This document shows, in pieces, positions 11,246-30,455 of a stretch of DNA of 32,000 bases. The notes below the pieces were generated by a model. It saw only the letters and a list, made by a program, of their open reading frames with translations. It did no database searches and was not told the origin of the DNA. A program made the position numbers and the translations under genes. Within the stretch, counting starts at the first letter, position 1. Every line of letters begins with the position of its first letter. Origin of the DNA: Cupriavidus necator (GTDB taxonomy: Bacteria > Pseudomonadota > Gammaproteobacteria > Burkholderiales > Burkholderiaceae); the NCBI RefSeq assembly GCF_016127575.1, contig NZ_CP066019.1:2520001-2552000 (forward strand). The letters are read 5' to 3'.

Positions 11246-11313
11246 ATATTTCCCACTTTTCCCCGAAATTAGAGCGCTTTTGCCAGTTCTGTCGAATTTT
11301 GCAACCTGTACGC

Positions 11314-11319
11314 TACAAT
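11314..11319 (+). promoter_or_regulatory. candidate -10 box (TACAAT) for the OB-fold lipoprotein gene
   Basis: TACAAT lies 46 nt upstream of the ATG at 11366. GGAG is present at 11353-11356. I could not find a convincing -35 hexamer at 17-18 nt spacing. Confidence 0.25.
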
Positions 11320-11365
11320 GCCTCGTCGTCAGCCGACGGGGCTGGCGGATCTGGAGAAAAACAGA

Positions 11366-11986: not shown

Positions 11987-12284
11987 ACCAGCCAAAGGCG
12001 GCGACGGGCGGCAGTATGGCCGCCTCGCCCCAGGCTGCGCGTCTGGCGTCCCTGCCTCGCACCATGTGGATCCTGCGGCACGGCACGCCCGTCCGGCCCT
12101 GCATCCCTTACAAGCTCTGAAACCGTTGCACGGTAGCGCACGCCAAAGTGCCGCAAATCCCCGTCCGCGGGGCACCCCCCTCCACACGGTACGAATCTTG
12201 CCCCTTCCTGATTACCCGCCAGCGGTTCGCGCACGGCATGTGCGCCCGCACATGGCGCCACACGCACACTGTCAGGAAAACAGC

Positions 12285-13220: not shown

Positions 13221-13256
13221 CGCCAACGGTGGCGGGCGCCCCAGGCCGAGATCGGC

Positions 13257-14183: not shown

Positions 14184-14203
14184 GGGCGGCTCCGGGGGCT
14201 GGT

Positions 14204-14218
14204 TTGCGTTTTACGCAA
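14204..14218. promoter_or_regulatory. candidate LysR box (T-N11-A inside a perfect palindrome)
   Basis: TTGCGT-TTT-ACGCAA is a 6-bp perfect inverted repeat in the 118-bp divergent LysR/amidase intergenic region. It contains T-GCGTTTTACGC-A. Confidence 0.4.
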
Positions 14219-14301
14219 GGATATTTGAAAAAATCATCGATTGCGGGAAACCGTGCGCCGCCCGTATGCTTTTTCCCGACACCACAGGAGACCCCCGAGC
14301 C

Positions 14302-15756
14302 ATGGCGCCCACCCGGACCCCCGATCCCATCACCGAACTCGATGCCGTCGCCCTGTCGCGCGCCATCCATGCGCGCGAGGTCTCGTGCGTGGAAGTGCTC
14401 GATGCCTTCCTTGGCCAGATCGACCGCCACAACCCGCGCGTCAATGCCATCGTGGCTCCGGTGGAGCGCGACACCCTGCGCGCGCAGGCCGCCGGGCTCG
14501 ACGCCGAACTGGCACGCGGCGCCAGCCGCGGCCCGCTGCACGGCTTCCCGCAGGCGCCCAAGGACATCAGCCCGGCCGCGGGCATGGTCACCACCAAGGG
14601 CTCGCCGATCTTCGCCGGGCAGGTCAGCGAGTACGACGCCGTGATCTTCGAGCGCATGCGCGCCGGCGGCGCGGTCTTCGTCGGGCGCACCAACTCGCCG
14701 GAGTTCGGCCTGGGCGGCCATACCTACAACCCGGTCTACGGCACCACCCGCAACGCCTTCGACCCGGCGCGTTCCGCCGGCGGCAGCAGCGGCGGCGCCG
14801 CGGTGGCCGTGGCGCTGCACATGCTGCCGGTGGCGGATGGCTCTGACATGATGGGGTCGCTGCGCACGCCCGCGGCGTTCAACCACGTGTATGGCCTGCG
14901 CACCTCGGTCGGCTGCGTGCCGCACGGCCCGGGCGATGAGGTCTTCTTCCAGCAGTTCAGCGTGGCCGGCCCGATGGCGCGCAACGTGCCGGACCTGGCC
15001 CTGCTGCTGTCGGTGCAGGCCGGCTTCGACGCGCGTCTGCCGCTGACGCACCGCGCCGAAGCGCCCGGCACCTTCACGCTGCCGCCCGAACGCGACTGGG
15101 CCGGCGTGCGCATCGGCTGGCTGGGCAACCTGGGCGGCCACCTGCCGACCGAAGCCGGCGTGCTAGATACTTGCGAGCAGGCACTCACGCACCTGCGCAC
15201 GCTCGGCTGCACCGTGGACACCGCGCTGCCCGAGTTCGACCTGGAGCGACTGTGGCACGCGTGGATCGACCTGCGCAGCTTCTCGGTGGCTGGCGCCAAC
15301 GCGGCGCTGTACCACGACCCGGCCAGGCGCGCGCTGCTCAAGCCCGAGGCCGCATGGGAGATCGAGCGCGGCCTGGCCCTGCCGGGCACGCGCGTGTACG
15401 AAGCCCTGTGCGAGCGCAGCGCCTGGTACCAGGCACTGCGCTCGCTGTTCGAGCGCTTCGACTACCTGGTGCTGCCGGCCGCGCAGGTGTTTCCGTTCGA
15501 TGCCGACTGGGACTGGCCGCACACCATCGACGGCCGCGACATGGACACCTACCACCGCTGGATGCAGGTCGTGGTGCCGGCCACCATGGCCGGGCTGCCC
15601 GCCCTGGCCGCACCCGCCGGCTTCGGCCCCCAGGGCCTGCCGGCCGGCATCCAGATCATCGGCCCCGCGCAGGCCGACGCCGCCGTGCTGCAGCTCGGCC
15701 ATGCCTATGACCAGGCCGGCGGCTTCTCGCGCGTGCGCAGCCCCTGGCTCGATTGA
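14302..15756 (+). CDS. amidase (amidase-signature family)
   Basis: Lies in ORF 14182..15756. The ATG at 14302 follows AGGAG. AS-family motifs are present: FPQAPKDI, GRTNSPEFG, the GGSSGGAAVAVA Gly/Ser-rich signature, and GSDMMGSLRTPAAFN. Confidence 0.9.
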   Translation: MAPTRTPDPITELDAVALSRAIHAREVSCVEVLDAFLGQIDRHNPRVNAIVAPVERDTLRAQAAGLDAELARGASRGPLHGFPQAPKDISPAAGMVTTKGSPIFAGQVSEYDAVIFERMRAGGAVFVGRTNSPEFGLGGHTYNPVYGTTRNAFDPARSAGGSSGGAAVAVALHMLPVADGSDMMGSLRTPAAFNHVYGLRTSVGCVPHGPGDEVFFQQFSVAGPMARNVPDLALLLSVQAGFDARLPLTHRAEAPGTFTLPPERDWAGVRIGWLGNLGGHLPTEAGVLDTCEQALTHLRTLGCTVDTALPEFDLERLWHAWIDLRSFSVAGANAALYHDPARRALLKPEAAWEIERGLALPGTRVYEALCERSAWYQALRSLFERFDYLVLPAAQVFPFDADWDWPHTIDGRDMDTYHRWMQVVVPATMAGLPALAAPAGFGPQGLPAGIQIIGPAQADAAVLQLGHAYDQAGGFSRVRSPWLD

Positions 15757-15836
15757 GCCTTCGGCTGGTCCCGGCCCCGCTTCATATTGCTTCCGATTGC
15801 CTTCTATTCCTACAACTGCCGGCAGGAGTGCCAACG

Positions 15837-16826
15837 ATGACCGCAATGCCCCCGAAGCCGTTTCTCGCCTGCGCCGCCGCCCTGACCGCGGTGCTGTCCG
15901 CAACGCCCGCCGCCGCGCAGGCCCAATCCTGGCCGGACCGACCGATCCGGCTGGTGGTGCCCTTCGCCGCGGGCGGCGCCACTGACGTGCTGGGCCGCCT
16001 GCTGGCAGTCGGCCTCGGCGAAAAGCTCGGCCAGTCGGTAGTGGTCGAGAACAAGCCCGGCGCCAGCACCGTGATCGGCGCCACCCAGGTATCCAAGGCC
16101 GCGCCCGACGGCTACACGCTGCTGCTGGCGGCCAGCACCACGCTGACGCTGAACCCGGCCATCCGCCAACACCTGGGCTACGACCCCATCAAGAGCTTCA
16201 CCCCGCTGGGCCTGGTCGCCGACATGAGCCTGGTGCTGGTAGCCAACCCGGACACGCAGATCACCACGCTCAAGGATCTGGTGACGCAGGCCAAGGCGCA
16301 CCCCGACAAGTTCTCCTACGGCTCGTTCGGCGCCGGCTCCTCGGTGCATTTCGGCGCGGAGATGCTCAAGTCCGCCACCGGCATCCGCATGGTCCACGTG
16401 CCCTTCAACGGCAGCGCCCCCAGCCTGACCGCGCTGGCCGGCGGCCAGGTGCCGATCGCGGTCGATACCGTGGTGGCCACCCTGCCGCTGATCAAGGGTG
16501 GCAAGATCCGGCCAGTGGCAGTGCTGTCGCCGCAGCGACTGCCAGCGCTGCCGCAAGTACCGACCGTCGCGGAGAGCGGCTATCCCGGCTTCCAGATGGG
16601 CACGTGGTTCGCGCTGCTGGCACCCGCGGGCCTGCCCGCGCCGGTGCAGCAGAAGCTGGAGAAGGCGCTGGCCGAGGTCGCCAATGCACCCGCCACCAAG
16701 GCACGCATGGTCGAGCTGGCGCTGACGCCGGCCTACGGCAATGGCGCGGCGGTGAAGGCGCGGGTGGAGAAGGAATTGCCTGAGATGCGGGCGGTGGCGG
16801 CGCGGGCGGATATTCGGGCGGAGTAA
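15837..16826 (+). CDS. Bug-family (TctC-like) tripartite tricarboxylate transporter substrate-binding protein
   Basis: Lies in ORF 15753..16826. The ATG at 15837 gives a signal peptide ending AAAQAQS. It is followed by the typical Bug N-terminus WPDRPIRLVVPFAAGGATDVLGRLLA, and later VENKPGASTVIGA, YGSFGAGSSVHF and VPFNGSAP. Confidence 0.9.
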   Translation: MTAMPPKPFLACAAALTAVLSATPAAAQAQSWPDRPIRLVVPFAAGGATDVLGRLLAVGLGEKLGQSVVVENKPGASTVIGATQVSKAAPDGYTLLLAASTTLTLNPAIRQHLGYDPIKSFTPLGLVADMSLVLVANPDTQITTLKDLVTQAKAHPDKFSYGSFGAGSSVHFGAEMLKSATGIRMVHVPFNGSAPSLTALAGGQVPIAVDTVVATLPLIKGGKIRPVAVLSPQRLPALPQVPTVAESGYPGFQMGTWFALLAPAGLPAPVQQKLEKALAEVANAPATKARMVELALTPAYGNGAAVKARVEKELPEMRAVAARADIRAE

Positions 16827-16833
16827 CGAGATG

Positions 16834-16853
16834 GCGGGCCGGCCCCGGCCCGC
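16834..16853. terminator. GC-rich hairpin between convergent genes
   Basis: GCGGGCCGG-CC-CCGGCCCGC is a 9-nt perfect inverted repeat (effectively ~7 bp of stem with a 4-6 nt loop). It sits in the 33-nt gap between the Bug gene stop (16826) and the acyltransferase stop (16860). There is no U-tract on either side. Confidence 0.35.
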
Positions 16854-16859
16854 TGTGGC

Positions 16860-17312
16860 TTACTCCAGCACGCGCATCGTCCGCTCGCCGTCCGGTGCCA
16901 ACTGATGCAGCACTTTGCCCTTGAAAACGGTGGCCTTCAGATCGTCCAGCACGTCCTTGGCGCCACCATAAGGGGCGAACACGTCGATCAGGAACGCCTT
17001 GTCGCCCGACTTCCAATCCCCGGGCGCCAATTGGTACGGCGGCATGGCAAACCGCTCGACCACAGCGTCGGAGAGGTAGGCCCAGGTCACGAAGGCTGTG
17101 GGCATTTCACCCCGCATGTACAGCTTGGCCTGCTCCAGGATCAGCGGCGGCATCACGCGCCACTCCAGGTCAGCGAAGAAGCTGTGGCGCGTCGTTGGAT
17201 TGTTCATCATCAGCCAAGACACCGGGCCCAGCAGCGGGATCTTCTTGATCACGCGCTGCGCTTGCTCGGCAGCAAACTTCATCAGCTGTTCGTTGTCGGT
17301 CGGAATAGTCAT
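16860..17312 (-). CDS. RTX toxin-activating lysine acyltransferase (HlyC/CyaC/RtxC family)
   Basis: 150-aa ORF. It aligns by eye with E. coli HlyC. LGPVSWLMMNNPTTRHSF matches LGHVSWLWASSPLHRNW. MPTAFVTWAYLSD matches YPVAYCSWANLSL. GDWKSGDKAFLIDVFAPYGG matches [20 protein letters not shown]. The His and Asp that are catalytic in HlyC appear to be present. Its start overlaps the TolC stop (ATGA). Confidence 0.9.
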   Translation of the reverse strand: MTIPTDNEQLMKFAAEQAQRVIKKIPLLGPVSWLMMNNPTTRHSFFADLEWRVMPPLILEQAKLYMRGEMPTAFVTWAYLSDAVVERFAMPPYQLAPGDWKSGDKAFLIDVFAPYGGAKDVLDDLKATVFKGKVLHQLAPDGERTMRVLE

Positions 17313-18591
17313 TGGATACTTGTCCTGGGTTGTTTCATGCCGGCAGCAGCGGGCATGGCAGGCACTGCCGGTGTTTCCTGCTGCGCATTGTTGGTCAGCA
17401 GCGCATTCACTCCCTGGACATCCGCCTCAGTCAGCGTGCCGGCCGCCGCCTTCAGCCGCATGCCTTGCAGGATAGTGTCGTAGCGTGCCTTTGCGAGATC
17501 ACGCTGCGCCGCAAAGAGTTGCTGCTCGGCATTGAGCACGTCGATGTTCACGCGCGTGCCGATCCGGTAGCCAATTTTGTTGGCATTGACCGAATCCAGG
17601 CTCGACGTGACCGCAGAAGTCAGCGCCTCGACCTGGGACAGGCCACTCGTCACACCACCATAGGCTTGCCGTGCCTGCGTCGCCGCCTGGCGTCGCGCCG
17701 CTTCCAGCTCCGCGCGCGACTTGTACCGATTGGCGATTGCCTCAGTCACGCGCGAGTTGACGGCGCCGCCCTGGTAGATCGGGATCGTCAGCTGCAGCCC
17801 GATGGTGCCGGACTTGACCCGGTTCTCGATGTCCGCGGGCGAGGTCATCGAACCTGAGGTGTAGTTGTTGCCATAGCCAGCCGTGAAGTCCAGTGTCGGC
17901 AGGTGCGCCGCGCGGTTCCTGGACACCTCTTTCTCGGCAACTTCGACCGCTGCCAACTGCGTGCGCACTTGCGGGTTGTTCTCCCGCGCGTGACCCATCC
18001 AGGCATTGACATCCTTCGGCTCGGGACCCGGCAGGGTCACGTCAGCCTTCAGGCCCGCTACAGGCTCGGGCAATGGCCCGACCAGCCGTTCGAGTTCCGC
18101 CTGCTTCGCCTCCTGATCGTTGAGCGCCTGCACCAGCTGCGAGCGCCCAAGGTCGTGGCGGGACTGCGACTCGTATACATCGGTAATGGTCGCCTCGCCC
18201 ACGTCGTAGCGACGCTTGGCAAGCACACGCTGCTGCTCCACTGCCCGCAATTGCGCCCTGGCAACTGTCACGCTGTCGCGCGCGGTCAGCAGATCGAAGT
18301 ACGCCTGCGAGGTGCGCAGGATCAGGTCGCTCTCGGCCTGGGCGAACTGTCCTGGCGATTGCCGTTGCCGTTCAGGTTGATCGAGGGCAGCACGCCGGCG
18401 CGAGCCTGCAGCAGCTTCTCGCGTCCGGCCTCCAGCGCGTAGCGTGATGCCTCGAAGGTTGGGTCGCCCCCCTGCGCCATCCTGTAGACCGACAGCAGGT
18501 CGATGGCGCTGGCCTGGCTCGGGACAAGAGCGCCGACCGCGGCCAGCGCAGCCACAGCAGCGCTGGTCAAATCATGCATGCGCACCATCAC
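17309..18591 (-). pseudogene. tolC: TolC-family outer-membrane channel, apparently internally deleted and frameshifted
   Basis: Two ORFs in different frames. ORF 18591..18322 carries a signal peptide plus DLLSVYRMAQGGDPTFEASRYALEAGREKLLQARAGVLPSINLNGNGNRQ, then runs out of frame to a stop. ORF 18271..17309 carries the rest of TolC. That second frame stays open and TolC-like upstream to about 18349 (QFAQAESDLILRTSQAYFDLLTARDSVTVARAQL). About 40 aa are missing at the junction near 18350-18357. Confidence 0.6.
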
Positions 18592-19925
18592 CGCTCCCGC
18601 AAGGCTTCATCCTTGTAGCGCATCAGCGGCGACAGGAAGTAGGAAATCATGCGGCGTTGGTCCACGCGGATATCCGCGGTCACGCTCATCCCCGGGGTCA
18701 ACGTCCCCTTGCGCCCATTGACTGAGTTCGGCGTGGCCATCGTGTCGAGCTTGATGCGCACAGGATAGATGGGGCCAAGCTTCTGATCATTGATGGCGTC
18801 GGTACCCACCCACTGCACTTCGCCCTCGATATATCCGAAGCGGGTGAAGTCAAAGGTTTCCACCTTGGTAATGACCCGCTGGCCGCGCTTCACGTAGCCG
18901 ATGTCCTTGTTCTGCACCTGAGCATCCACTTCCAGTGCAGTGTTCTCGGGCACCACGATCGCCACCGGCTGCGCCTGGGTCACCACGCCGCCAACGGTAG
19001 TCACCGCCAGTTGCTGGACGATGCCGTCGATCGGTGCGCGCAGCGTCTGCAGGTCACGCCGCATCGTTGCCTTGACCAGCTCCAGCTCGGCCGTGGCAGA
19101 CTTGCGGCTTTCCTCGGCCAGCTCTGCCGCATGCCGTGCGCTGAACTCTGCCACCGCCTGTGCGCGCTGCTGCTGCGCGGCGTTGAGGCCCGCGCCAGCT
19201 TCGGCCAGCCGGTTGGTCTGCAGAGCCAGTTCCTTCCTGAGGTTGATCAGCTCCAGCCGCGTCTCGATCAGGCCGGTTTCGGCGATATGCCCGGTCTTGA
19301 CGAGTTCCTCGCGCATGTCGTTCTTCTTGCTGACAAGCGGCAGGCTGGCGCGGATCTGCTCCAGACTGGCAGCGGCCCCTTCCCGGTCGGCACGCTTGCG
19401 GGCAATTTCAGCGTCGAGCGCCGCCAGCCTGGCGCGTTGTTCGGCCAGCGCGCTGGTGAGCAGCGCCTGCTGCGTCCGGGCGATATCCGCAGGCAAGCCT
19501 TCGACGGCCTGCATGGTGGGCTTGCCGTCGAGAAGCGCAGTCAGCCGTCGCACCCCGGCTACGGCCTCCCATTGATCGCGCTGCAGCCGGTCACGGTCTG
19601 CTGCAGTGGTGGTCGGGTCGAGTTCGACCAGGATGTCGCCAGCCTTGACCTTCTCACCGTCGCGCACATGGATCTCGCGTACGATGCCGGCTTCGAGCGG
19701 CTGCACCACCTTGGACTTGCCCGAGGGAATGACTTTTCCCTGCGCGGAGACCACCACGTCCATTTTCGCCATCGTGGCGTAGACCAGCGCAAGGACGGCC
19801 ATACCGCAGATACTGCCAGCGACGATCCGTGCCATGCGCGCGGGACGGCGGTTGGCGATGCCCATGGCGGCCGTGGCAAAGGCATCGGCTGCCGCTTGCT
19901 GGTCAGGCTTCATCGGCTCAGACAT
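18588..19925 (-). CDS. HlyD-family type I secretion periplasmic adaptor
   Basis: Lies in ORF 18588..19988. The ATG at 19925 gives MSEPMKPDQQ. One TM helix (IVAGSICGMAVLALVYA), a lipoyl-like motif (GKVIPSGKSKVVQPLEAGIVREIHVRDGEKVKAGDILVELD), a long coiled coil, and the C-terminal HlyD signature (GMSVTADIRVDQRRMISYFLSPL). It overlaps the hlyB-like stop by 8 nt. Confidence 0.9.
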   Translation of the reverse strand: MSEPMKPDQQAAADAFATAAMGIANRRPARMARIVAGSICGMAVLALVYATMAKMDVVVSAQGKVIPSGKSKVVQPLEAGIVREIHVRDGEKVKAGDILVELDPTTTAADRDRLQRDQWEAVAGVRRLTALLDGKPTMQAVEGLPADIARTQQALLTSALAEQRARLAALDAEIARKRADREGAAASLEQIRASLPLVSKKNDMREELVKTGHIAETGLIETRLELINLRKELALQTNRLAEAGAGLNAAQQQRAQAVAEFSARHAAELAEESRKSATAELELVKATMRRDLQTLRAPIDGIVQQLAVTTVGGVVTQAQPVAIVVPENTALEVDAQVQNKDIGYVKRGQRVITKVETFDFTRFGYIEGEVQWVGTDAINDQKLGPIYPVRIKLDTMATPNSVNGRKGTLTPGMSVTADIRVDQRRMISYFLSPLMRYKDEALRER

Positions 19926-22113
19926 GAGCGGCTCCCGGCAACGGTTGCACAGGGGCCTTGTGCTTGATAGTGAGGGTTTCCAGCACACGCGACGCCTCGA
20001 ACAAGGCGCGATACTTGCCCTCGCCAGTGATCAGGTCAGTGTGATGGCCTTGCTCGACCAGTTGCCCGCCATCGAGCACCAGGATGCGGTCGGCCAGGCG
20101 CAGCGTGGAGAGGCGGTGCGCGACGATAAAGACGGTGCGGCCCGCACAGATCTTCTCGAGGTTGTCGTGGATGACGCGCTCAGACTCGTAGTCCAGGCTG
20201 GCGGTGGCCTCATCGAGCAGCAGCAGGCGCGGGTTGGTCGCAAGCGCCCGCGCGATGGCGATGCGGGCGCGCTGGCCGCCCGACAGCAGGCTGCCGCGCT
20301 CACCGATCACGGTGTCGTAGCCTTGGGGCAAGGCATTGACAAAATCGTGTGCCCCGGCCAGCTTGGCGGCTGCCATCACGGCCTCCAGCGACAGGCCCGG
20401 ATCGGAGATGGCGATGTTGTCGCGCACCGACATGTTCATCAGCGCGGCGTCCTGCGACACCACGCCTACCTGGCTACGCAGCCAGGCTGTGTCCACCGTC
20501 GCCAGGTCGAGCCCGTCGATCGTGACCGTTCCACCAGTGGGTGAGTAGAGGCGCTGCAACTGGCGGATCAGCGTCGTCTTTCCGGCACCAGAAACGCCGA
20601 CAACGCCCACGACTTCCCCAGCGGGGATGGAAAAGGAGACATCCGACAGCACTTGGGCGCCGTCGGCCTGATAGGCAAAGCTCACCCGGTCGAAGCGGAC
20701 AAAGCCCTGAATCGCTGCCCGTTGGGTCTGGTCCGAAAGCTGGCCCGCCTCGGCCGGCGTATCCATGATGCCGCCCAGCCGCCTGACCGCCACGCGCATC
20801 TGCTGGAATTCCTGCCACAGCGACGAGAGCTTGATGATCGGTGCATTGACCCGGCCCGACAGCATGTTGAAAGCAATCAGCCCGCCCACGGTGAGGTTGC
20901 CGTCGATCACCTGCATGGCACCGACGCCCAGCAGCACCACGGTCAACACCTTGCTGGTCAGATTGATGACCTGGTTGGTCCAGTTGCCGGTATGGCCCGA
21001 TTCGAATGCGGCTACCGCGTAGCGCACCAGCCGGCTTTCCCAGCGGCGCTGCCAGTTGGCTTCAACGGCCTGACCCTTGAGGGTCTCCATCGCGCCGATG
21101 GTCTCCACCAGGAACGCCTGATTGTCGGCGCCCAGTGCGAACTTGTCTTCCAGCTTCTTGCGCAGGATCGGGCTGATCACATACGACGCACCAAAGAAGA
21201 TCGGCAGGAAGCAGATCACGATAATGGTCAGGAGCGGGCTGTAATAGAACATGACCGCCAGGAACACCAGCGCGAAGAACAGGTCCAGCCAGGCGGTCAG
21301 CGCCTGCCCGGTCAGGAAGTTGCGCGCCGTCTCCAGTTCGCGCATCGAAGCCATCACGTCACCGGCGCGGCGCGAGTTGAAGTACGACATCGGCAGGCGC
21401 ATCAGGTGCCGGAACAGGCGCGCGCCCAGTTCGACATCGACGCGATTGGTCGTATGGGTGAGCAGGTACTGGCGCAGGCCATTCAGCATCGCCTCGAACA
21501 GCGCCACGCCAGCCAGGGCCACCAGCATCACGACCAGCGTCGCCTGCGAGCGGTGGGCCAGCACCTTGTCGATCACGACCTGGAAGGCAAGCGGCGTCAC
21601 CAGTGCAAAGAGTTGCACGACGAACGATGCCAGCAAGACTTGGGTGAGTTCGGTTTTGTACTTCTTGATGGCCTGCCAGAACCATGCAAAGCCGAACGCC
21701 GAGGTGCCGGCATTGGCCGTGCCATCGGTCAGGGATGCCACGCTGCGGCCGGCTTCGATCCAGGTATTGGCGAACTCGCCGGCGAACGCCGCCGCTGGCA
21801 CTGCCTGCGGTGGCTGGTCCGGGTCCCGCTGCACGTGGACGACATCGGCATCCACCTTGCCGACCAGCACAACCCGGCCACTGCGGGTCAGGGCCAGCGC
21901 GGGCAATGCTGCGCGACGCAGCTTGTCCACCCCGCCCTCGACCAACCTGGCGTCGAAGCCAAGGTCATCCAGGCCCCACAGCAGCCGGCTGGCGTCAAAG
22001 TCATCACGCACGTCCCAGCGGCGTGCGAGGCCCTCGGGATCGGCCTTGACCTCATGCAGGCGCGCGAATACGGCAAGCATGCCAAGATTGGGCAGTGTTG
22101 GCTTCCGATTCAT
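19918..22113 (-). CDS. type I secretion ABC transporter (HlyB family) with N-terminal C39-like domain lacking the catalytic Cys
   Basis: 731-aa ORF with a six-TM exporter core. Walker A is GVSGAGKTTL, the ABC signature is LSGGQRARIAIARAL, Walker B is LLLLDEATASLD and the H-loop is IVAHRLST. The first ~125 aa (LAVFARLHEVKADPEGL...) resemble the C39-like domain and contain no cysteine. Confidence 0.95.
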   Translation of the reverse strand: MNRKPTLPNLGMLAVFARLHEVKADPEGLARRWDVRDDFDASRLLWGLDDLGFDARLVEGGVDKLRRAALPALALTRSGRVVLVGKVDADVVHVQRDPDQPPQAVPAAAFAGEFANTWIEAGRSVASLTDGTANAGTSAFGFAWFWQAIKKYKTELTQVLLASFVVQLFALVTPLAFQVVIDKVLAHRSQATLVVMLVALAGVALFEAMLNGLRQYLLTHTTNRVDVELGARLFRHLMRLPMSYFNSRRAGDVMASMRELETARNFLTGQALTAWLDLFFALVFLAVMFYYSPLLTIIVICFLPIFFGASYVISPILRKKLEDKFALGADNQAFLVETIGAMETLKGQAVEANWQRRWESRLVRYAVAAFESGHTGNWTNQVINLTSKVLTVVLLGVGAMQVIDGNLTVGGLIAFNMLSGRVNAPIIKLSSLWQEFQQMRVAVRRLGGIMDTPAEAGQLSDQTQRAAIQGFVRFDRVSFAYQADGAQVLSDVSFSIPAGEVVGVVGVSGAGKTTLIRQLQRLYSPTGGTVTIDGLDLATVDTAWLRSQVGVVSQDAALMNMSVRDNIAISDPGLSLEAVMAAAKLAGAHDFVNALPQGYDTVIGERGSLLSGGQRARIAIARALATNPRLLLLDEATASLDYESERVIHDNLEKICAGRTVFIVAHRLSTLRLADRILVLDGGQLVEQGHHTDLITGEGKYRALFEASRVLETLTIKHKAPVQPLPGAAHV

Positions 22114-22277: not shown

Positions 22278-25200
22278 TCATGACGGTTGGCCCATGCCCA
22301 AGTCCACCGCGCTGGCCTGTGCGGCGCGGTCCATCATTTCGGCAAGGGTGTCCTCACGCGGAGGGACAAAGCCGCCAGGGGCCTGAGACCCATCGGCCGT
22401 CGTCAGCAGCTTGTTCCACTGGAGGCAACTCCATTGCACGGCTTCCGCGCTGTGCGGCGGATAGGGACAAGCTGAAGATGGCGTCTCGGCGGTGGCGAGC
22501 AGCTGTGCCACGGCGTCGGCGGCAAAGGCAGCATCGATCGGCTCGTTCGGCGCGATTCCCTGCTGGACCTCTTCCAGGTACAGGGCGAAGCCGGGCAGCG
22601 GCACATCCTTGCCAGCGAACATCACGTCTGCGGCCTCACTCTTGCTGCCATCGGTGTGCGTGACCTCCACCGTGCCGAACACGACGTTGCCATGATCGAG
22701 GTGGGCCTCGCCCTGTCGCTGGAGTGCGATGGAGGCAATGCCAGCCTGATCCAGTGTCTTGTGCTCGGCCTCGCTGAACTCGCCATTGCCATTGACGTCC
22801 TGCACTACCTTGAACTGGCTCCAGGCAGCGTCTTCCTTGCTGATCCTGCCGTCGCCATTGGTGTCGAAGGTGGCCAGCGCCTCAAGGTCTGTCTTCGTGC
22901 CGGGCGCGAAATTGGTCAGGCGCGTCTCTTCCACAATGATCTTGCCGTCGCCGTCGGCATCGAAGCCTAGTACGCCGTCGGTCGCGGCGGCCCATCCGAT
23001 TTGCTCAGGCTGGCCGTCATGATTCGCGTCGGCCCTGACGTTGGATTGATCCGCCGCTAGCAACTCCACGCCGTTGCCATTCAGGTCTATCACGAGGGGC
23101 GTGTAGCCGCCACTTGCATTGGTGCCCTTGTGGGTAGCGTTAATCACCACGTCCATGAATGCCCCCTGAGCATCGGCAATACGGATGGTGAAGGCGTCAG
23201 TACCGGTGTAAGGGTCTCCCGCATGGCTCTCGTACTGCCAGTTGGCATAGCGGCTGACGAGCTCACCTGAGTGTTCAAAGCCATATTCGGTTTCCCGATA
23301 GGTGTTGGCATAGGCGTAACCGTGTTGCGGCGCCTGAACAATCGATATGACAATGGCCGCTGTATCGCCATCTGGATCGTAGGCAATGATCCGGCCCGTT
23401 TCTCTTCGGGGATCATTGGCGGGGACAAGAACCCGATCTGACTCATAGCTTGCCCCCGCGAAAAAGTAGTCGCCATCCATCTGGTCTAGTGCCAGTGGCT
23501 TGAGCATGCCATTCTGATAGTGCGATGGTGTATAAGGCCGCCCGCCGGCATCAAACAGTTGGCCTTGCAAGTTCAGCGACAAGGCCAGTGCTTCGTCATA
23601 GACTGGCTGAAAGACAGGGCCATCACTGTATACATACTGCCCGGCAGAGCCCGCACCTGCACCCGGAGCAGCCTTGCCCACCACGACCGGCGGGCCGACG
23701 TAATACCCAAAGATGGCGCGACCATACTCGACGGACTCGATGATCGGCGCCTTGTTCACATGCTCAACATGCAGGAAGGCCGTGGCCCAGGTCTGCCCTC
23801 CGTAGGGATCGGACACCAGGTACTGAAAGGACGCTTGCCCATAGAAGTCGTGGTCAGGCGTGAACCGGACTTGGCCATCGGCCTGGATCTCGACCGTACC
23901 GTGCTGCGCATTGGCAACCTGGGTGACTGCGAGCGCGTCGCCATCCGGGTCCGCGTCATTGGCAAGAAATTGCGCCGTATTGATGACGAACGGCGTGTTC
24001 TCATAGCCCGAGAAGCCATCATCAACCGCGACCGGTGTCGTGTTGATCTTCTCCAGGTTGATGGTCGTGGTCGCCATGGCAAAGCCGCCTACACCATCCG
24101 AGATGGTGTAGGTGAAGTGGCCTTGTGCACCCGGGTAGCCGCCAAAGCCAGGCTCCGGCAGGAAGGTCACCGAGCCGTCCGCATTCAGTCGCACAGTGCC
24201 GTGCTCGGCCCCGGACACGCCCACAATGCGCAGATCGCCATGCGGGTTGTCGATGTCGAAGTCATCCGCCAACAAGGCCGCCGCGGTCAGCGTAATGGCC
24301 ACGCCCCTGCGTCCGTCCACGATATTGTCATTGGCGATCGGCGCATCATTGACTGGCGCCACGTGAATAGTCGCCGTCGCGGTCGAGACGCCCCCCACGC
24401 CATCGCTCACTTCATACGTGAAACTGGCATCACCAAAGAAATTTGGATCGGGCACAAAACGGATGGTCCCGTCCGGGTTCAGCGACACGGTACCGTGCGT
24501 GGCGCCGTTGACGCGGGTGATGGAAAGCGCCTCCGGTGGGTTGTCCACATCCGTATCATTGGCAAGCAGTGCGGCGACATCTATGGTCAGCGCGGTGTCC
24601 TCGTTGCTCGCAATCACATCGTCGCGCAGCCGCGGAGCATCATTGACGGGAGCCAAGTCAATGTCCACCCGCCCGGTGGTGATGGCGCCGTGCGGGTCCG
24701 ACACGGTGTATTCGAAGCTGGCGGCACCGAAGTAATCCGCTTCCGGGATAAAGGTGACGGCTCCGTCGGCATTCAGACGCACTTCGCCGTGCTGGGCGTT
24801 GCCGACCGCTACCAGCGTGAGCGTGGCTTGCGCATCGTCCACGTCCCGGTCATTGGCAAGCAAGCTGGCCGCGGTGAAGGCCGCTACCTCGTCCTCATTG
24901 CCACGGAAGTCCTCGCCAGTCACGATCGGCGCGTCATTGACCGGCGCCAGATCGACCGTGGCCATCGCCTCGGTATAGCCGCCCGCGCCGTCGTAGACGG
25001 TGTAGAAGAAGGTCGCGGTGCCGAAGAAGTCCTGCTCCGGCACGAAGCGGATCTGTCCTTCGGGGGTCAGCTCGACCGTGCCGTGCTGGCCGTTGCGCAC
25101 CGAGAACACGGTCAGGTCCGAGTGGGGGTTATCCACGTCCCAGTCGTTGGCCAGCAGCGTCGCCTGCTCGATCAGCAGTATGGTGTCCTCGTCGGTGGCG

Positions 25201-28200
25201 ACGGTTTCACCCGCCACCACCGGCACGTCATTGACGGGGCGGATTTCGAGGTTGACGGTAGCGGGCGTCAAGCCGCCGTTACCATCCGACACCCAGTAGA
25301 CAAAGCTGGCCGGCCCGAAGTAATCCTGGTCAGGCAGGAAGCGCACGTTGCCGTGGGCATCGAGGGCCACCAGGCCGTGCGTGGCATTCGAAACACGCAG
25401 GATGCTCAGCACGTCGCCGATGGTGGGCGTATCCACATCGAAATCGTTGGCAAGCAGCTGTCCCGAGGTGAACAGCAGGCCGGTATCTTCATCGAAAGCG
25501 GCCGTTTCACCGGCAGTGACCGGCGCATCATTGACCGGCGCAATGTCCAAGTAGACGCGGCCAGTCGCCTGCAGGCCATACTCATCCTCGACGGTGTAGC
25601 GGAAACGCGCCGGCCCCCAATAGTCTGGGTCAGGGGTGAACACAATGCGCTGGCTGCCGTCGGGCAGCAGTGTCAGGGTCACCGTGCCATTCTCGCCGCC
25701 GTAGACGTTGATCAGGCGCAGTGGCTGGGTCAGGACGTCGCGCGAGGTATCGTTGGCCAGCAGCACTGCCGCATCGATGGCATAGCGCGTGTCCTCGATG
25801 CCTGCGACCTGCTCATCGGCTACGTCCGGCGCGATGATCTGAATATCCTCGCCGTTCGGCCCAGCTGCCACGCGGCCGGGCGTTGTGGTCAGGATCGTAT
25901 CGTCACTTGCGGCATCGTAATTGACACCAACCGCCGGCACTGATCTGATCAGATCCAAAGTGACTTCGACTGGCGACCCGAGCGTTGCCTCGCTGCCAAC
26001 CGGGCGCGTCGCCGGTGGCAAGGCGTTGACTGGCACCTGTACAAAGGGCGGCTGAGCCACAGTCGGTTGCGGCTGGTCCGGCGAATCAACCGTCGTTCCA
26101 AGTTCCACCGGCAGGCGGCTGATGGTGTTGTTGCCGGTTGTATCGATAGCGGGGGCTGGCGCATCAGGCTGCCCGCCACCTTCTGCCGCGTTGGCAACGC
26201 CGGTCACGGCACCCGCCGCGACACCCAGCAGCGCGCCGGTGCCCGCAAACAGGCTGTCGCTGCTCTTGATCCACTGATCGCGGATCGCAGCGAAGGCATC
26301 AGTTGGGCTAGCTGGCGGAGCGCTGGTAACACGGCCGTCCGCCGGGCGCACCGTGTCAGTACGCTGCGCAGGCCTGCCGGGATTTGGGTCCTTCGAGGTC
26401 AGGCGGCTGTCATCCGGCTCGACACGGGTGGCAGTAGCCCGCCCGACCGGGGTCGTGCCCTCGCCATCAGCCACGCGGTCATCGCCAGCGACGATCGCGT
26501 CTTCGGCAAGCGTCTGCTCGTGCTGCTTGTCGCTGGCGGTTTTGATGCGACTGTCGCCTTCGGCAACTTGCATCTCAGCGCTGGCGTCTTCCAAGGCTAC
26601 GCCGCCATGGGTATGGCCAGCTTCGCCCGTGTAATCATGAGTGACGACGGCATTCAGGACCGTCTCGCCGCCTTCCTTCGCGTGCAGCATGCCGGCAAAG
26701 GCATCGAGCCGGCCATCGCCGTCCGTGTCCACAAACGCCACCTGATAGGCGTCGCCGCGCACATCCGCTGTCAGGTGGTGCTCGGTGACCATCATGACGC
26801 TGCCATCGGCGGCGCGCAGGACGGGTGGCGTGCTGGTGAAATCCAGGCTGGCGATACCCCGGTCGAGGAACGATGCGAACTCGCCCTGATCGGTCTGGCC
26901 GTTGCGGTTAACGTCCAGCCAGATGCCCAGGGCGGCAAAGGCCGGGTCGGAAGTGTCCAGCTTGCCGTCGTGGTTGACATCGAGCCATTGCACGCTGTTG
27001 CGGGCATGGGCGGCGGAGGCATCCGGGTCGTTGGTCAGGATCTCGTTCTGCCCGATCCTGCCATCGCCGTTCACATCGATGGAGAGGATGCCCTGGTTGG
27101 CGTTCACCCAGTCCGTCTGCTCGATGTAGCCGTCCAGATCGACGTTCTTGCCGATCCGGCCAGGGTTCACACCTGCAGGCAGTTCCGGCTTCAGGTCGAC
27201 CGTCAGCGCAGTAAAATGCTGGCGGATGCCGTCAGCGTCTGCCTCAGGCATGCCTGCGTCGGCCTTAGCCTCATGCCAATCCGGGCTGTGCAGTTGCAGG
27301 CCAGCTCGCGACCGGTTCTCTTCAATGCTGCCCGTTGCCGGAGCAGTGACGACGCCAGATTCGCGCATGTGGGCGAGCACCGATTCCGCTTCCCAGGCCG
27401 GGACGATGGCAGCGAACGCCTGCTGCATGAACTGCTGCGCAATGGTCGCCTGGCTGGTGTCATAGCGCAAACCAGCGCCATCATAGTAGCGTCTCTGCTC
27501 CTGGCCGTTGTCGTCGATCCACTTGAGATACAGCTGACCGCCGTTATCGTTCAGGCGCGCCCCATCAGGATCGAAGAGATAGCCGATGGTCGGCAGGCGC
27601 TGTGGAATGATGGCGTAAAGTGGGTTGCCGTTGGCATCCACCTGCTGGGCAAGCGACACCTGCAGGGCGTCGATCAGGCTTTGCAGGATGTTGGCAGGCG
27701 TCGCGCCGCCGTCCTCGGCATCGGTGGTCTTGAGCACGTGAATGCTGCCGTCCGGATTCCACACAGCGGTGGCTTCACCTTCTAGCGTCGGAAGATCCTT
27801 TGCGGACAGCATTGAGCCGATCATTGTCACGGCGATAGCCGCGAAGGCAACAGGTGGGCAATAGGAGGTATAGCCTGCCACCGTCATGCCCGCAGCGATG
27901 GTACTCAGTGCCGCCCCGGCAACCTGATACTCATTGCCATCCTCGATGGCCATTACCAGCGTGACAATGCTTGCGACCAGCGCCAGCCCACCAGCAATCT
28001 GCCCTGTCGTCGCAGCGCTATCCAGCAGAGTGCCAGCGGATGCCGACTCAGCCTGGAATGCAACAATTCCTTGTTCCTTGAGCGCGTTGGCGTAGATGGC
28101 TGCCGCCTGGCTGCCGAGGTTGGTACTGGCAGCAGCGATGCCCAGTCCGTTGCCGTCTTGAATGGCGTTGAACAGGTTCAGGCCAGCAGCGAGGGCATTC

Positions 28201-29558
28201 AGTCCGACGCCGACGCCATCGGGCAAAAGTTTGCCGCTGCCGAGGCGATCCAGATTGATCAGCATCGCTGCGCTGGCGGCCACAATCGCCTTCGTGTCGC
28301 CGGATTCGATTGCCTGGATCAGGGACAGCATGCTTTGGACGCTGCCAAGCGCGTCCACAGGGCTTATTGCCTCTGGCACGGGTGTGGGCTGCGAGTCAGG
28401 CCGCGTATCATGCTCGTCGAATGGCAGACCACCGATAGCTGGGCCTGTCAGGTCCAGCTCACCGCCTGCGCTAACAGTGACCATCTCACCATGCAAGCCA
28501 GTAAGGCGGACATTACCGTCGTCGGTTGCCACAGTAGCAAGCACATTGCGCTGCCCATCCACCAGCACTAGTGTGCCGTCTCCGAGAGTGTAGAGGGTAA
28601 CGTCCCTGCCATAGAGATGCTCAATGGTGCCTTGCCAGTGGGCGGCCCGCTCAGCAAAAGCCTGATGTTGAGCGGCAAGCATTTCCTCTGTAGGCGTAGC
28701 TGCATCGGAATGCGTGCCACTATGGTCAGCAAGCTGAATGCGATCCCCACCAAGCCCAGCTAGCGCATTGCCAACACCGATAGCGCCGCGGGCGTCCGAG
28801 AACGGCAACCTATCGAGCAATTGCTTGAATTGATCTTGGACATGACTGCCAATTTCCCGCAAGGTATTGGCTGCATCCACTCCCATGGATTCGAAGAAGC
28901 CTGCCTGGTCGATTCGACCAACAGCATCCATGAAATTCTGCAACTCTTTCCCGGACGCTATGCCCGGTGCCTTTTCCAGCCAATCGCTTGCCATGGCGCG
29001 CACCACCGGATCAGGCGAGGTCGATGCGCCGTACATGAACGCCAGCGTGGCGGTGTTGGCCGCAAGTGCGTCGCTGTAACCACCACCCGTGTCGCGCAGC
29101 ATGCTCCAGAACCGCTCGACTTGTGCCGGGCCACCCATTTTCTCCATCAGGCGGAAGGGGGTATCTAGGGTCCAGGCGGAAGGGGGAAGACCATTGTCTT
29201 TGAAGACCTGGCGGTGAAAGTTCCAGACTTCCCTGCTATCGATGTCACGTGTGACAGGCAGACTACCGTCGATAGTCTGTTGATACAGCGCATCAAGATA
29301 GCCTTTTGCCATGTCCAGCTTAATCTTCTCAACCTGCGCCCCAGTCAACGGCCTCCCCAGGTCCTTGGCAGTGTTGTGCATATACGTCAGCGCTGAGGCG
29401 CCGGCGATACTAGTGGCGTCGGCCACACCACCGGCCCAGCCTGAGTACTTGTATCCGTAGCCTTCGAGCCGGCTATAGACTTGCGACGGAGTAAGCGTGC
29501 CTGCGTTAAGCTGAAACCTAATATCTTTCAACGACCGTGCAGATATCGGATTTGGCAT
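22278..29558 (-). CDS. giant (2426 aa) T1SS substrate: putative acylated pore-forming toxin or adhesin with cadherin-like repeats and DxDxDG calcium modules
   Basis: Single uninterrupted ORF immediately upstream of the hlyB/hlyD-like genes. Hydrophobic Gly/Ala-rich region at aa ~400-590. Seven ~99-aa repeats with the pattern PVNDAP...EDT...LLANDxDVD...HGTV...DG...F.P...YFG.ASF.Y.VSDG.GG. Two modules rich in DVNGDG, DVNHDG, DTDGDG, DADGDG and DTNGDG motifs. No N-terminal signal peptide. Acidic overall, with a 111-aa C-terminal tail. Confidence 0.9.
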   Translation of the reverse strand: MPNPISARSLKDIRFQLNAGTLTPSQVYSRLEGYGYKYSGWAGGVADATSIAGASALTYMHNTAKDLGRPLTGAQVEKIKLDMAKGYLDALYQQTIDGSLPVTRDIDSREVWNFHRQVFKDNGLPPSAWTLDTPFRLMEKMGGPAQVERFWSMLRDTGGGYSDALAANTATLAFMYGASTSPDPVVRAMASDWLEKAPGIASGKELQNFMDAVGRIDQAGFFESMGVDAANTLREIGSHVQDQFKQLLDRLPFSDARGAIGVGNALAGLGGDRIQLADHSGTHSDAATPTEEMLAAQHQAFAERAAHWQGTIEHLYGRDVTLYTLGDGTLVLVDGQRNVLATVATDDGNVRLTGLHGEMVTVSAGGELDLTGPAIGGLPFDEHDTRPDSQPTPVPEAISPVDALGSVQSMLSLIQAIESGDTKAIVAASAAMLINLDRLGSGKLLPDGVGVGLNALAAGLNLFNAIQDGNGLGIAAASTNLGSQAAAIYANALKEQGIVAFQAESASAGTLLDSAATTGQIAGGLALVASIVTLVMAIEDGNEYQVAGAALSTIAAGMTVAGYTSYCPPVAFAAIAVTMIGSMLSAKDLPTLEGEATAVWNPDGSIHVLKTTDAEDGGATPANILQSLIDALQVSLAQQVDANGNPLYAIIPQRLPTIGYLFDPDGARLNDNGGQLYLKWIDDNGQEQRRYYDGAGLRYDTSQATIAQQFMQQAFAAIVPAWEAESVLAHMRESGVVTAPATGSIEENRSRAGLQLHSPDWHEAKADAGMPEADADGIRQHFTALTVDLKPELPAGVNPGRIGKNVDLDGYIEQTDWVNANQGILSIDVNGDGRIGQNEILTNDPDASAAHARNSVQWLDVNHDGKLDTSDPAFAALGIWLDVNRNGQTDQGEFASFLDRGIASLDFTSTPPVLRAADGSVMMVTEHHLTADVRGDAYQVAFVDTDGDGRLDAFAGMLHAKEGGETVLNAVVTHDYTGEAGHTHGGVALEDASAEMQVAEGDSRIKTASDKQHEQTLAEDAIVAGDDRVADGEGTTPVGRATATRVEPDDSRLTSKDPNPGRPAQRTDTVRPADGRVTSAPPASPTDAFAAIRDQWIKSSDSLFAGTGALLGVAAGAVTGVANAAEGGGQPDAPAPAIDTTGNNTISRLPVELGTTVDSPDQPQPTVAQPPFVQVPVNALPPATRPVGSEATLGSPVEVTLDLIRSVPAVGVNYDAASDDTILTTTPGRVAAGPNGEDIQIIAPDVADEQVAGIEDTRYAIDAAVLLANDTSRDVLTQPLRLINVYGGENGTVTLTLLPDGSQRIVFTPDPDYWGPARFRYTVEDEYGLQATGRVYLDIAPVNDAPVTAGETAAFDEDTGLLFTSGQLLANDFDVDTPTIGDVLSILRVSNATHGLVALDAHGNVRFLPDQDYFGPASFVYWVSDGNGGLTPATVNLEIRPVNDVPVVAGETVATDEDTILLIEQATLLANDWDVDNPHSDLTVFSVRNGQHGTVELTPEGQIRFVPEQDFFGTATFFYTVYDGAGGYTEAMATVDLAPVNDAPIVTGEDFRGNEDEVAAFTAASLLANDRDVDDAQATLTLVAVGNAQHGEVRLNADGAVTFIPEADYFGAASFEYTVSDPHGAITTGRVDIDLAPVNDAPRLRDDVIASNEDTALTIDVAALLANDTDVDNPPEALSITRVNGATHGTVSLNPDGTIRFVPDPNFFGDASFTYEVSDGVGGVSTATATIHVAPVNDAPIANDNIVDGRRGVAITLTAAALLADDFDIDNPHGDLRIVGVSGAEHGTVRLNADGSVTFLPEPGFGGYPGAQGHFTYTISDGVGGFAMATTTINLEKINTTPVAVDDGFSGYENTPFVINTAQFLANDADPDGDALAVTQVANAQHGTVEIQADGQVRFTPDHDFYGQASFQYLVSDPYGGQTWATAFLHVEHVNKAPIIESVEYGRAIFGYYVGPPVVVGKAAPGAGAGSAGQYVYSDGPVFQPVYDEALALSLNLQGQLFDAGGRPYTPSHYQNGMLKPLALDQMDGDYFFAGASYESDRVLVPANDPRRETGRIIAYDPDGDTAAIVISIVQAPQHGYAYANTYRETEYGFEHSGELVSRYANWQYESHAGDPYTGTDAFTIRIADAQGAFMDVVINATHKGTNASGGYTPLVIDLNGNGVELLAADQSNVRADANHDGQPEQIGWAAATDGVLGFDADGDGKIIVEETRLTNFAPGTKTDLEALATFDTNGDGRISKEDAAWSQFKVVQDVNGNGEFSEAEHKTLDQAGIASIALQRQGEAHLDHGNVVFGTVEVTHTDGSKSEAADVMFAGKDVPLPGFALYLEEVQQGIAPNEPIDAAFAADAVAQLLATAETPSSACPYPPHSAEAVQWSCLQWNKLLTTADGSQAPGGFVPPREDTLAEMMDRAAQASAVDLGMGQPS
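23745..25826 (-). repeat. seven diverged in-frame tandem repeats of ~297 bp (cadherin-like domains)
   Basis: The reverse complement of the PVNDAP codons (..catcattgac..) recurs at about 24350, 24650, 24938, 25230 and 25530. Degenerate copies lie near 24040 (INTTPV) and 23750 (VNKAP). This corresponds to aa 1245-1938 of the giant ORF. Confidence 0.85.
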
Positions 29559-29570: not shown

Positions 29571-30455
29571 TTATCGCTGTTGAAGAGTAGGCGTGGCGGC
29601 GGGCTCGCCGGGCTGCACCCGGAAACCTAGGATCAATTCACGTGCCTTACGTTCGTATTCCATCCACTGACTCAACGTACGGGCATCGTATTGGAGATTC
29701 ACTTCGGCCTTCATTGAGGGATAGAGAGAAAAGCGATGGATGCAGACATTGCGCGGACTTTCCTCGAACGGCTCCCCATTTGCGTTGCATTCAATGAATG
29801 ACACGTCCTTGCCATCATTCGTAAAGAAGAACAGGCGATCCCTCGATACAACAGGACCACTCGGATAACGCACAATCTCTTCGGATCTGTACTCGGCTAG
29901 TCCATAGCGTGTCTCGGGCTGCCGGTCGTATCGCCTATTGCGGAACCTGGCAAGCCCCTTAACTGTGACATGCTGATCGTAGGGATTGCCTAGCACCATC
30001 TTTTCTTTATGTACGTTCAGTGATTGATTGGCGCTCACCCCAATCGGCAGCCATTCCTCTGGCCCCTCCATCGACTTCTGCGCTCGGTAGTAACTTGCCT
30101 CGTTCGCCGCCGTCCTCGGCGCAAAGTCCGGCAGATGCACCATCAGGGGTAGTGAATTGATCTTCGAAGCAAAGGTGCGCACCGGCGCCTTCCAGTTGCG
30201 ACGCTCTGGATCAAATACACTCGGATCTCCTTCGTACTCGGTCACCAAGTGGGTGTAGTTCAGCGGGACGGAAACCGGCACACCGCCAAGGTCACCAATA
30301 ATCGGATCACGTCCCCGTGGAAGATCAAAGGGACCGGCCCATGCAGCCAAGCGCGCATTAATGGCCACCATAGCAACTGCAATGAGCAGCAACATAGGCG
30401 CCGCATACATCAGGCAGCGGCGAACTGATCGTTTCATTGATGAACTATTCAACAT
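29571..30455 (-). CDS. membrane-anchored protein of unknown function, first gene of the T1SS locus
   Basis: 294-aa ORF (an alternative ATG lies at 30437) in a ~47-48% GC stretch where chance ORFs of this length are unlikely. One N-terminal TM/signal-anchor: RRCLMYAAPMLLLIAVAMVAINARLAAWAG. The remainder is hydrophilic with mixed charge. Its stop lies 12 nt before the toxin ATG. I recognise no family. Confidence 0.6.
   Translation of the reverse strand: MLNSSSMKRSVRRCLMYAAPMLLLIAVAMVAINARLAAWAGPFDLPRGRDPIIGDLGGVPVSVPLNYTHLVTEYEGDPSVFDPERRNWKAPVRTFASKINSLPLMVHLPDFAPRTAANEASYYRAQKSMEGPEEWLPIGVSANQSLNVHKEKMVLGNPYDQHVTVKGLARFRNRRYDRQPETRYGLAEYRSEEIVRYPSGPVVSRDRLFFFTNDGKDVSFIECNANGEPFEESPRNVCIHRFSLYPSMKAEVNLQYDARTLSQWMEYERKARELILGFRVQPGEPAATPTLQQR

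Follow-up and report, generated by a model that had tools for sequence, protein, structure and literature searches.

A hydrophobic helical module in candidate type I-secreted polymorphic toxins with interchangeable N-terminal domains

Results

We examined a 32-kb window of the Cupriavidus necator genome (contig NZ_CP066019.1, positions 2,520,001 to 2,552,000; all coordinates below are counted within this 32,000-nucleotide stretch) and, within it, a 2426-aa open reading frame (ORF) on the minus strand (22278-29558) that contains a Gly/Ala/Leu-rich block at residues 400-590. This block is a conserved hydrophobic module lying between an N-terminal "head" domain that differs from one relative to the next and downstream parts that the relatives share. 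The proteins of this family are probably giant secreted toxins with interchangeable cell-wall- or membrane-degrading heads, used for killing rival bacteria. On balance, we lean toward the view that residues 400-590 would form the membrane-insertion or translocation module of a polymorphic toxin exported by a type I secretion system (T1SS), delivering or anchoring the head in the envelope of a rival Gram-negative cell, with a partner encoded upstream protecting kin. What appears new is the module, which has no known relative; it is found on known kinds of system, namely, polymorphic toxin systems and T1SS-exported acylated toxins.

The region had been singled out in a sequence-only reading of the DNA as a ~190-aa Gly/Ala-rich hydrophobic stretch, placed where RTX cytolysins carry their pore-forming domain. 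The peptides quoted there match residues 400-590 of the minus-strand ORF exactly, and a plus-strand reading of 27789-28361 was ruled out, its translation being full of stops. Composition (A 21%, L 12%, G 11.5%, with 18 charged residues among 191) and hydropathy both bore out the hydrophobic character. The mean Kyte-Doolittle (KD) value was +0.71, compared to -0.21 ± 0.17 (maximum 0.11) for other 191-aa windows of the same protein; at ~5 standard deviations above the rest of the 2426 residues, the module is far outside the protein's own range and is therefore not due to chance. The peak 19-residue windows fell within 514-543 (mean KD 2.15) and within 562-590 (1.66), and the corresponding peak in the hydrophobic domain of Escherichia coli HlyA is 1.97. 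Membrane helices, whose prediction the sequence-only reading had called for, were indicated as well, since the 19-mer 520-538, which has no charged residues, gave a transmembrane-grade score comparable to that of the best HlyA helix (Hessa-type sum of 1.2 kcal/mol versus 1.9 for HlyA).

An AlphaFold2 (AF2) model of the module, built from a 25-sequence alignment, contained seven helices, each 17-33 residues long and joined to the next by a short turn (400-419, 422-439, 449-467, 471-502, 508-540, 543-560, and 568-584), with predicted local distance difference test (pLDDT) values of 60-80, in line with the several hydrophobic or amphipathic stretches described earlier from the letters alone. We also observed a threefold internal repeat of helix-turn units, in which the first helix ends in A-I-x-x-G-[DN] (415-421, 464-470, and 536-542). 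Nearly all of 36 relatives compared keep the motif A[IL]xxG[DN] two to three times, and at least one 19-mer with KD > 1.5 is kept in 32 of them; the conservation thus concerns properties of the protein and extends down to ~25-30% identity. A chance or low-complexity origin was rejected, as the module is conserved over 93 sequence clusters. The module also lies upstream of all calcium-binding modules, as had been proposed: an SPM-like module (SPM, self-processing module) starts at ~781, cadherin-like repeats span ~1250-1940, and a second SPM-like module occupies 2154-2317.

To describe the family, we used a word-indexed search, which returned six close homologs (three are recorded as Cupriavidus), and a profile of the module (residues 395-780), which was searched against 1.84 billion representatives and matched 93 clusters, 61 of them at E<1e-10. 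The close homologs share the module and the downstream parts, while their N-terminal domains differ, two being lipase-like, one carrying HExxH, and one being of another kind. Family members include Cupriavidus, Herbaspirillum, and Sedimenticola; a profile scan of genome contigs gave seeds at no more than two loci, which belong to a single Cupriavidus genome, so this taxonomic spread rests on a few named proteins. A tblastn search of the module against 72,556 plasmids gave no match. Most full-length members are 2000-4500 aa long with the same downstream architecture, and in them the module is preceded by an N-terminal region of 0-950 aa that is unrelated between members. Current labels for these proteins are "cadherin-like," "Ig-like domain-containing protein," or "hypothetical protein."

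The heads of the relatives comprise Peptidase_M23 (P0022, P0031, and P0064), NlpC/P60 (P0019 and P0074), SLT plus LysM (P0044), type VI secretion system (T6SS) Tle1-like (P0092 and P0015), and Lipase_3/phospholipase-like domains (P0002), all of them kinds of enzyme that attack peptidoglycan or membrane lipids from the periplasm. The head of the present protein is shared only by P0003, P0005, and P0016. Local alignments to relatives with other heads start at residues 234-374, depending on the partner, and within one genome, modules that stand behind different heads (P0002, P0004, and P0006) show 78-88% identity in local alignments. Unrelated N-terminal domains thus sit on a shared chassis at a sharp junction, as expected of polymorphic toxins, both among the six close homologs and across the 93 clusters. 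As judged from these sequence comparisons, a constant delivery chassis begins with the module, which is preceded by a short beta-hairpin and linker segment. One member, P0001 (1194 aa), has the module and lacks the repeat stalk. Genuine RTX nonapeptide repeats occur among the relatives only in the distant P0092 and in P0005.

Two loci carrying the present head stand apart. In L014, the head (in P0005) and its upstream partner are found on another chassis, with an SPM and true RTX nonapeptide repeats and without the module. In L015 (Cupriavidus sp. IK-TO18, 10001-17367), a frameshift divides the ortholog where the hydrophobic module begins: P0003, the first ORF, loses the frame after ~residue 392, and the following ORF begins with MLSLVQAIESGD. 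The same locus has, another 1.5 kb upstream, an additional and truncated copy of the partner gene.

The gene next to the head changes together with it. In every inspected locus with upstream sequence available, a small gene lies directly upstream of the toxin gene, and its products are mutually unrelated between loci with different heads; most of them show, by eye, a signal peptide, a lipobox, or a membrane anchor. In the present locus this gene encodes a 294-aa protein without any Pfam or NCBIfam match, which is 66% identical to the upstream protein of L015, where the head is the same, and 54% identical to that of L014, whose toxin shares the head only. Two loci with M23 heads likewise have related upstream proteins (27% identity, E 4e-8). 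Such co-variation of an adjacent small gene with the toxin domain is a further property of polymorphic toxins, and the encoded proteins are putative immunity proteins. In addition, one Cupriavidus locus (L003) contains two tandem cassettes, each consisting of upstream gene, head, and module, with no C-terminal part for export; the first toxin gene stops after 705 aa, and the second is cut by the edge of the contig. In such orphan cassettes, the sequence breaks off within the module or shortly behind it. L002 has pieces of further heads and of the chassis close by, and no orphan cassette was noticed within the present 32-kb window. Together, the gene arrangement carries the signature of a polymorphic toxin-immunity system that would be a mirror image of Rhs/CDI (CDI, contact-dependent inhibition), with an N-terminal toxin and an upstream partner.

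The toxin gene is followed by genes for a T1SS and a HlyC-family protein (Table 1). The presence of a HlyC-type gene alongside the toxin is supported by its family match and by its conservation as an operon member in distant relatives: the order toxin, ATP-binding cassette (ABC) transporter, membrane-fusion protein, outer-membrane protein, HlyC is shared by the present locus, L007 (Herbaspirillum), L008, L009, and L010, and in L001 a HlyC gene also lies downstream of the toxin gene. All six module-bearing loci inspected have the HlyC gene, and L014, whose toxin is without the module, has a T1SS operon without HlyC. This co-occurrence of HlyC and module (6 loci with and 1 without, a small sample) is suggestive. 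A HlyC homolog was also found in a Ralstonia two-partner-secretion (ShlB/filamentous-hemagglutinin) locus. The ABC transporter passes the cut-off of TIGR01846 (HlyB subfamily) and falls under that of TIGR03375, which we take to represent LapB-type transporters; no Pfam or NCBIfam match suggestive of LapG or LapD was seen among the operon and flanking ORFs scanned.

The TolC-like gene is apparently interrupted. On three-frame translation, an 88-aa N-terminal piece (MVRMHDLTSAAV...) stops and the other 320 aa are in a different frame, leaving the product ~60 aa short compared to the 469-473-aa orthologs in L007 and L015. The break could reflect a pseudogene or an assembly error.

We then asked whether the module is related to the pore-forming domain of RTX toxins. 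PF02382, the RTX N-terminal domain, did not match residues 1-1154 even at E<=10, and Pfam and NCBIfam models together matched nothing on the hydrophobic block or the head in the same segment. The profile comparison that the sequence-only reading had suggested did not support remote homology: hhalign of the 25-sequence module alignment against a HlyA-type alignment gave a probability of 0.6%, the HlyA-type profile being shallow (6 sequences, effective number of sequences 1.7, mostly close HlyA relatives). A BLAST match to HlyA 232-319 (33% over 98 aa) was discarded as compositional, since it vanishes with composition correction. Foldseek of the module model against the PDB yielded at best E 0.13 and template modeling scores of <=0.23, with weak matches to TPR-like helical repeats. 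From these four negatives it follows that the module resembles the RTX domain physically and in its position and is not a detectable member of that family. The earlier suggestion of an RTX-type pore domain thus holds for placement and physical character and fails for homology, and no HemolysinCabind (PF00353) match, i.e., no RTX nonapeptide repeat, was found by Pfam or NCBIfam anywhere in the 2426-aa protein. By profile and fold comparison, the module and the haemolysin pore domain are unrelated.

Table 1. Parts of the 2426-aa protein and genes of its locus, in window coordinates
Feature	Residues	Position	Strand	Basis or remark
294-aa upstream protein with N-terminal signal/anchor sequence		29571..30455	minus	candidate cognate immunity (or accessory) protein of the head
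Variable N-terminal head domain	1 to ~300	28659..29558	minus	homolog comparison
Beta-hairpin segment and Pro/Asp/Ser-rich linker	~310-399	28362..28631	minus	between head and module
Hydrophobic helical module	400-590	27789..28361	minus	translation, hydropathy, AF2 helices, conservation in 93 clusters
Conserved alpha/beta domain, adjoining the last hydrophobic helix	592-760	27279..27785	minus	AF2 pLDDT >90
SPM-like Ca-binding module 1 (SPM/EF-hand-like)	~781-960	26679..27218	minus	PDB 6sjw (FrpC), E 5e-10, residues 808-909
Second short hydrophobic helix (LFAGTGALLGVAAGAVTGV)	1100-1127	26178..26261	minus	hydropathy
Seven to eight cadherin-like/tandem-95 repeats	~1250-1940	23739..25811	minus	Cadherin_5 E 4e-141, Big_9, NF012211 tandem-95 E 8e-144
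SPM-like Ca-binding module 2, full-length	2153-2317	22608..23102	minus	PDB 6sjw E 1e-16, aligned from SPM residue 1
HlyB-type T1SS ABC transporter		19918..22113	minus	TIGR01846 819 bits, above cut-off; ABC_membrane, ABC_tran
HlyD-type membrane-fusion protein		18588..19988	minus	TIGR01843 E 5e-110
TolC-like outer-membrane protein gene, apparently interrupted		17309..18585	minus	TIGR01844 E 5e-71, model positions 131-412 only
HlyC/TAAT-family lysine-acyltransferase homolog, last operon gene		16860..17312	minus	PF02794 E 4.5e-32; ApxC 4whn E 2e-9

The other parts of the protein are as follows (Table 1). The head gave no Pfam match, its AF2 model had a mean pLDDT of 65, and Foldseek of that model returned no match. 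In the segment that follows it, AF2 placed the strands of the beta-hairpin at 321-371. The alpha/beta domain behind the module is the best-conserved part of the profile (positions ~174-349) and carries the most conserved motifs of the family (P..EG.A.A.W, IPQRLP.IGY, LYLKWID..G.EQ.RYYDG, and A.VPAWEA), with no PDB fold match by Foldseek at residues 592-760. The helix at 1100-1127 is isolated, transmembrane-grade, and set within an otherwise disordered Pro-rich stretch; relatives carry a matching stretch, often, by eye, with a terminal Q-W-P motif. A PDB sequence search with the protein gave SPM matches only, and precomputed Pfam annotation of relatives places PF26745 (SPM) at the region of module 1. 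The C-terminal tail after module 2 is the presumed T1SS signal.

Self-processing of FrpC is defined by an Asp-Pro bond (PMC7078468). This scissile bond is absent from both SPM-like modules, module 1 having His-Phe/Phe-Thr and module 2 Thr2153-Pro2154, and relatives show, by eye, X-Pro or Asp-Ala/Ser at that position. FrpC-type self-cleavage is therefore not expected here and was rejected as a mechanism; as judged by their residues, both modules are probably Ca-dependent folding units rather than clip-and-link modules.

Some neighboring genes were also noted. The toxin operon is flanked at 14182-16826 by genes for an amidase and a TctC/Bug-family receptor; these genes, a G+C content of 66%, and the closest homologs are all indicative of a Cupriavidus-like betaproteobacterium. 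L009 has two adjacent HlyC-family genes (18438-19807), the second of which is divergent and, at 283 aa, the longer one. A small GNAT (Acetyltransf_1) gene adjoins the toxin or transporter gene in L007 (8468-8941), L008 (10220-10708), L010 (10274-10735), and L011 (8581-9060) and could encode a second modifying enzyme; it is absent from the present locus, where only 165 bp separate the toxin and ABC genes.

Discussion

The anatomy of the protein, its conservation, the swapping of heads, the co-varying upstream genes, and the linkage with HlyC, all observed above, can be put together in a model of delivery in which export, acylation, membrane insertion, target, and immunity function are inferred. 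After synthesis in the cytoplasm, where the HlyC-family enzyme of the operon would probably lipidate it, the toxin would be exported C-terminus first via the HlyB/HlyD/TolC-type system. Outside the cell, the two SPM-like modules and the cadherin-like repeats may fold on calcium. The helical hairpins, which have acidic G-[DN] tips and among whose helices one or two are transmembrane-grade, would insert into the membrane of a target cell. This would most likely be the outer membrane of a Gram-negative competitor, and insertion would carry or anchor the interchangeable N-terminal enzyme at its substrate. In relatives, the cargo would be a peptidoglycan hydrolase or a phospholipase. Sister cells would be protected by the small signal-bearing protein encoded upstream.

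Several observations weigh against this model. Alpha-helical insertion into the Gram-negative outer membrane is unusual, and the module has no sequence or fold similarity, in the comparisons made above, to any known pore-forming or translocation domain. AF2 packs its helices like a soluble helical repeat, as the weak TPR-like Foldseek matches also indicate. No enzymatic activity was recognizable by Pfam, AF2, or Foldseek in the head of the present protein, and, because the TolC-like gene looks interrupted, this particular protein may not leave the cell by the T1SS of its own operon. As for lipidation, the control locus without HlyC is a single one, the catalytic His24 of ApxC aligns with Thr in the HlyC homolog, and an alignment of 20 full-length relatives contains no column of conserved lysine.

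Other features of the HlyC homologs and of the lysine alignment can be set beside these points. The HlyC-family proteins of these loci (the present one, L001, and L007-L010) share the Thr at the place of the catalytic His of ApxC and HlyC; most of them have a conserved His two residues later, which is absent in L010, and they keep the Asp corresponding to Asp93 of the ApxC dyad (LIDV). The His24Ala variant of ApxC is reported to keep residual activity (PMC8510554). The sole K-rich column among the 20 proteins is a G-K-R inside one cadherin-like repeat (K in 14 and R in 5), at which the present protein has Arg1750 (~24309-24311, minus strand). The acylated Lys690 of HlyA is likewise in a G-K-R context, maybe by coincidence.

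Three other explanations of the module were weighed. The one that survives best, while still improbable in our view, is that it is a soluble Ala/Gly-rich helical-repeat spacer without any membrane role, conserved as a handle for homologous recombination when heads are swapped. The helical-repeat packing and TPR-like matches would fit such a spacer, as would the 78-88% identity of modules with different heads in the same genome and the orphan cassettes ending in or just after the module. However, the hydrophobicity, the helix-turn motif, and the alpha/beta domain are kept down to ~25-30% identity in other genera, and recombination at the DNA level cannot explain such conservation at the protein level. 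An uncharged, transmembrane-grade stretch at 520-538 and the co-occurrence of HlyC with the module also speak against a mere spacer.

Less probable again would be an anchor on the producer side, in which the helices hold the N-terminus in the producer's envelope or in the T1SS channel, so that the stalk is displayed and the head stays periplasmic until contact, a layout that is the mirror image of CdiA or of LapA-type retained adhesins. T1SS export runs C-terminus first, and the N-terminal part is thus the last to leave; a long cadherin-like stalk is typical of surface-retained T1SS adhesins, and a periplasmic immunity protein would protect the producer too. Against this stand a transporter that scores as HlyB rather than TIGR03375, the lack of LapG/LapD-like matches among the ORFs scanned, and P0001, which has the module without a stalk to display. 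Moreover, known retention modules are folded beta-rich domains, not hydrophobic helices, and the link to HlyC would be left unexplained.

The least likely of the three is the RTX-type cytolysin pore domain, lytic mainly toward eukaryotic membranes after HlyC-dependent acylation and with the rest of the protein serving adhesin-like targeting, since the HlyA-like hydropathy and placement, the HlyB-type operon with its HlyC homolog, and the nonapeptide repeats of the distant P0092 are set against a silent PF02382, the negative hhalign result, a compositional BLAST similarity, the absence of nonapeptide repeats from the present protein, peptidoglycan-hydrolase and Tle-type lipase heads whose co-varying partners fit bacterial targets and enzyme delivery, and the fact that no conserved immunity-like gene for a pore activity was seen. 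Interchangeable hydrolase and phospholipase heads with cognate upstream genes point to the delivery of enzymes into rival bacteria, not to a stand-alone haemolysin pore, and we therefore retain the membrane-insertion or translocation module as our favored reading of residues 400-590.

A broader proposal, which we put forward tentatively and hold to be somewhat short of an even chance, is that these loci represent a form of interbacterial attack that has gone unrecognized, in which giant lipidated T1SS toxins would themselves translocate their head enzymes across the outer membrane of rivals, using a hairpin module unlike those of RTX toxins, colicins, or CDI, with arrays of N-terminal toxin/immunity cassettes driving diversification. 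In the literature covered, which leaves out most subscription journals, we came across neither polymorphic toxins exported by a T1SS that carry cell-envelope enzymes at their N-terminus nor toxins of such a kind linked to HlyC. If this reading is right, polymorphic antibacterial effectors would travel by type I secretion as well as by types IV, V, VI, and VII, and toxin-activating acyltransferases would, beyond the case of CdiC, serve a second group of antibacterial proteins. In the module there would be a new and compact candidate for a device that takes enzymes through the Gram-negative outer membrane, with a bearing on bacteriocin engineering, and its defined extent and recognizable motif would allow these loci to be annotated.

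Comparison with known systems

Compared to LapA-type adhesins, the operon and flanking ORFs scanned show neither a LapB-type transporter nor LapG/LapD. With respect to RTX cytolysins, the HlyB/HlyD/TolC operon and the HlyC gene are present, and the PF02382 domain and the nonapeptide repeats are not. HlyA has in common with the present protein an A/G/L-rich region with a best helix of similar hydropathy, as well as a T1SS and HlyC; it differs in that its hydrophobic domain is near the N-terminus, whereas the module here follows a 400-aa enzyme-type domain and RTX repeats are absent. The SPM of Neisseria FrpC (PDB 6sjw; PMC7078468) is matched by both SPM-like modules, at the E-values given in Table 1, without its Asp-Pro bond.

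Among antibacterial systems, the CdzC and CdzD proteins of the Caulobacter contact-dependent bacteriocin are likewise hydrophobic, glycine-zipper-type, and exported by a T1SS (PMC5380434). Cdz proteins are small and have no enzyme head, repeat stalk, or HlyC, and no homology is claimed. Class IV CdiA effectors, which are lipidated by CdiC (PMC8510554), also combine toxin and immunity modules, with orphan cassettes in both cases. In CdiA, a two-partner-secretion (type Vb) protein, the toxin is C-terminal and the immunity gene lies downstream, and the present arrangement has a T1SS, an N-terminal toxin, and an upstream partner. The periplasm-acting effectors of T6SS (Tle1 and Tae/M23/NlpC-P60) belong to the same enzyme families as the variable heads, and just as T6SS immunity proteins are periplasmic, the small adjacent partners here carry signals or lipoboxes; unlike in T6SS, delivery here would not be by a contractile injector, and the enzyme is fused through the module to a giant T1SS substrate.

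Finally, CyaA of Bordetella is built, in order, from a cargo enzyme, a hydrophobic region, acylated and Ca-binding regions, and a T1SS signal (PMC3034196). In the present family, Ca-binding would be provided by SPM-like and cadherin-like modules and not by nonapeptide repeats, the hydrophobic region is without detectable homology to the RTX hydrophobic domain, and the cargo is polymorphic and of an antibacterial type, with cognate upstream genes. The two share an HlyB/HlyD/TolC-type exporter and a HlyC/CyaC-family acyltransferase in the locus, and they present the same order of parts: an N-terminal cargo of ~300-400 aa, hydrophobic helices, Ca-binding modules, and a C-terminal T1SS signal.

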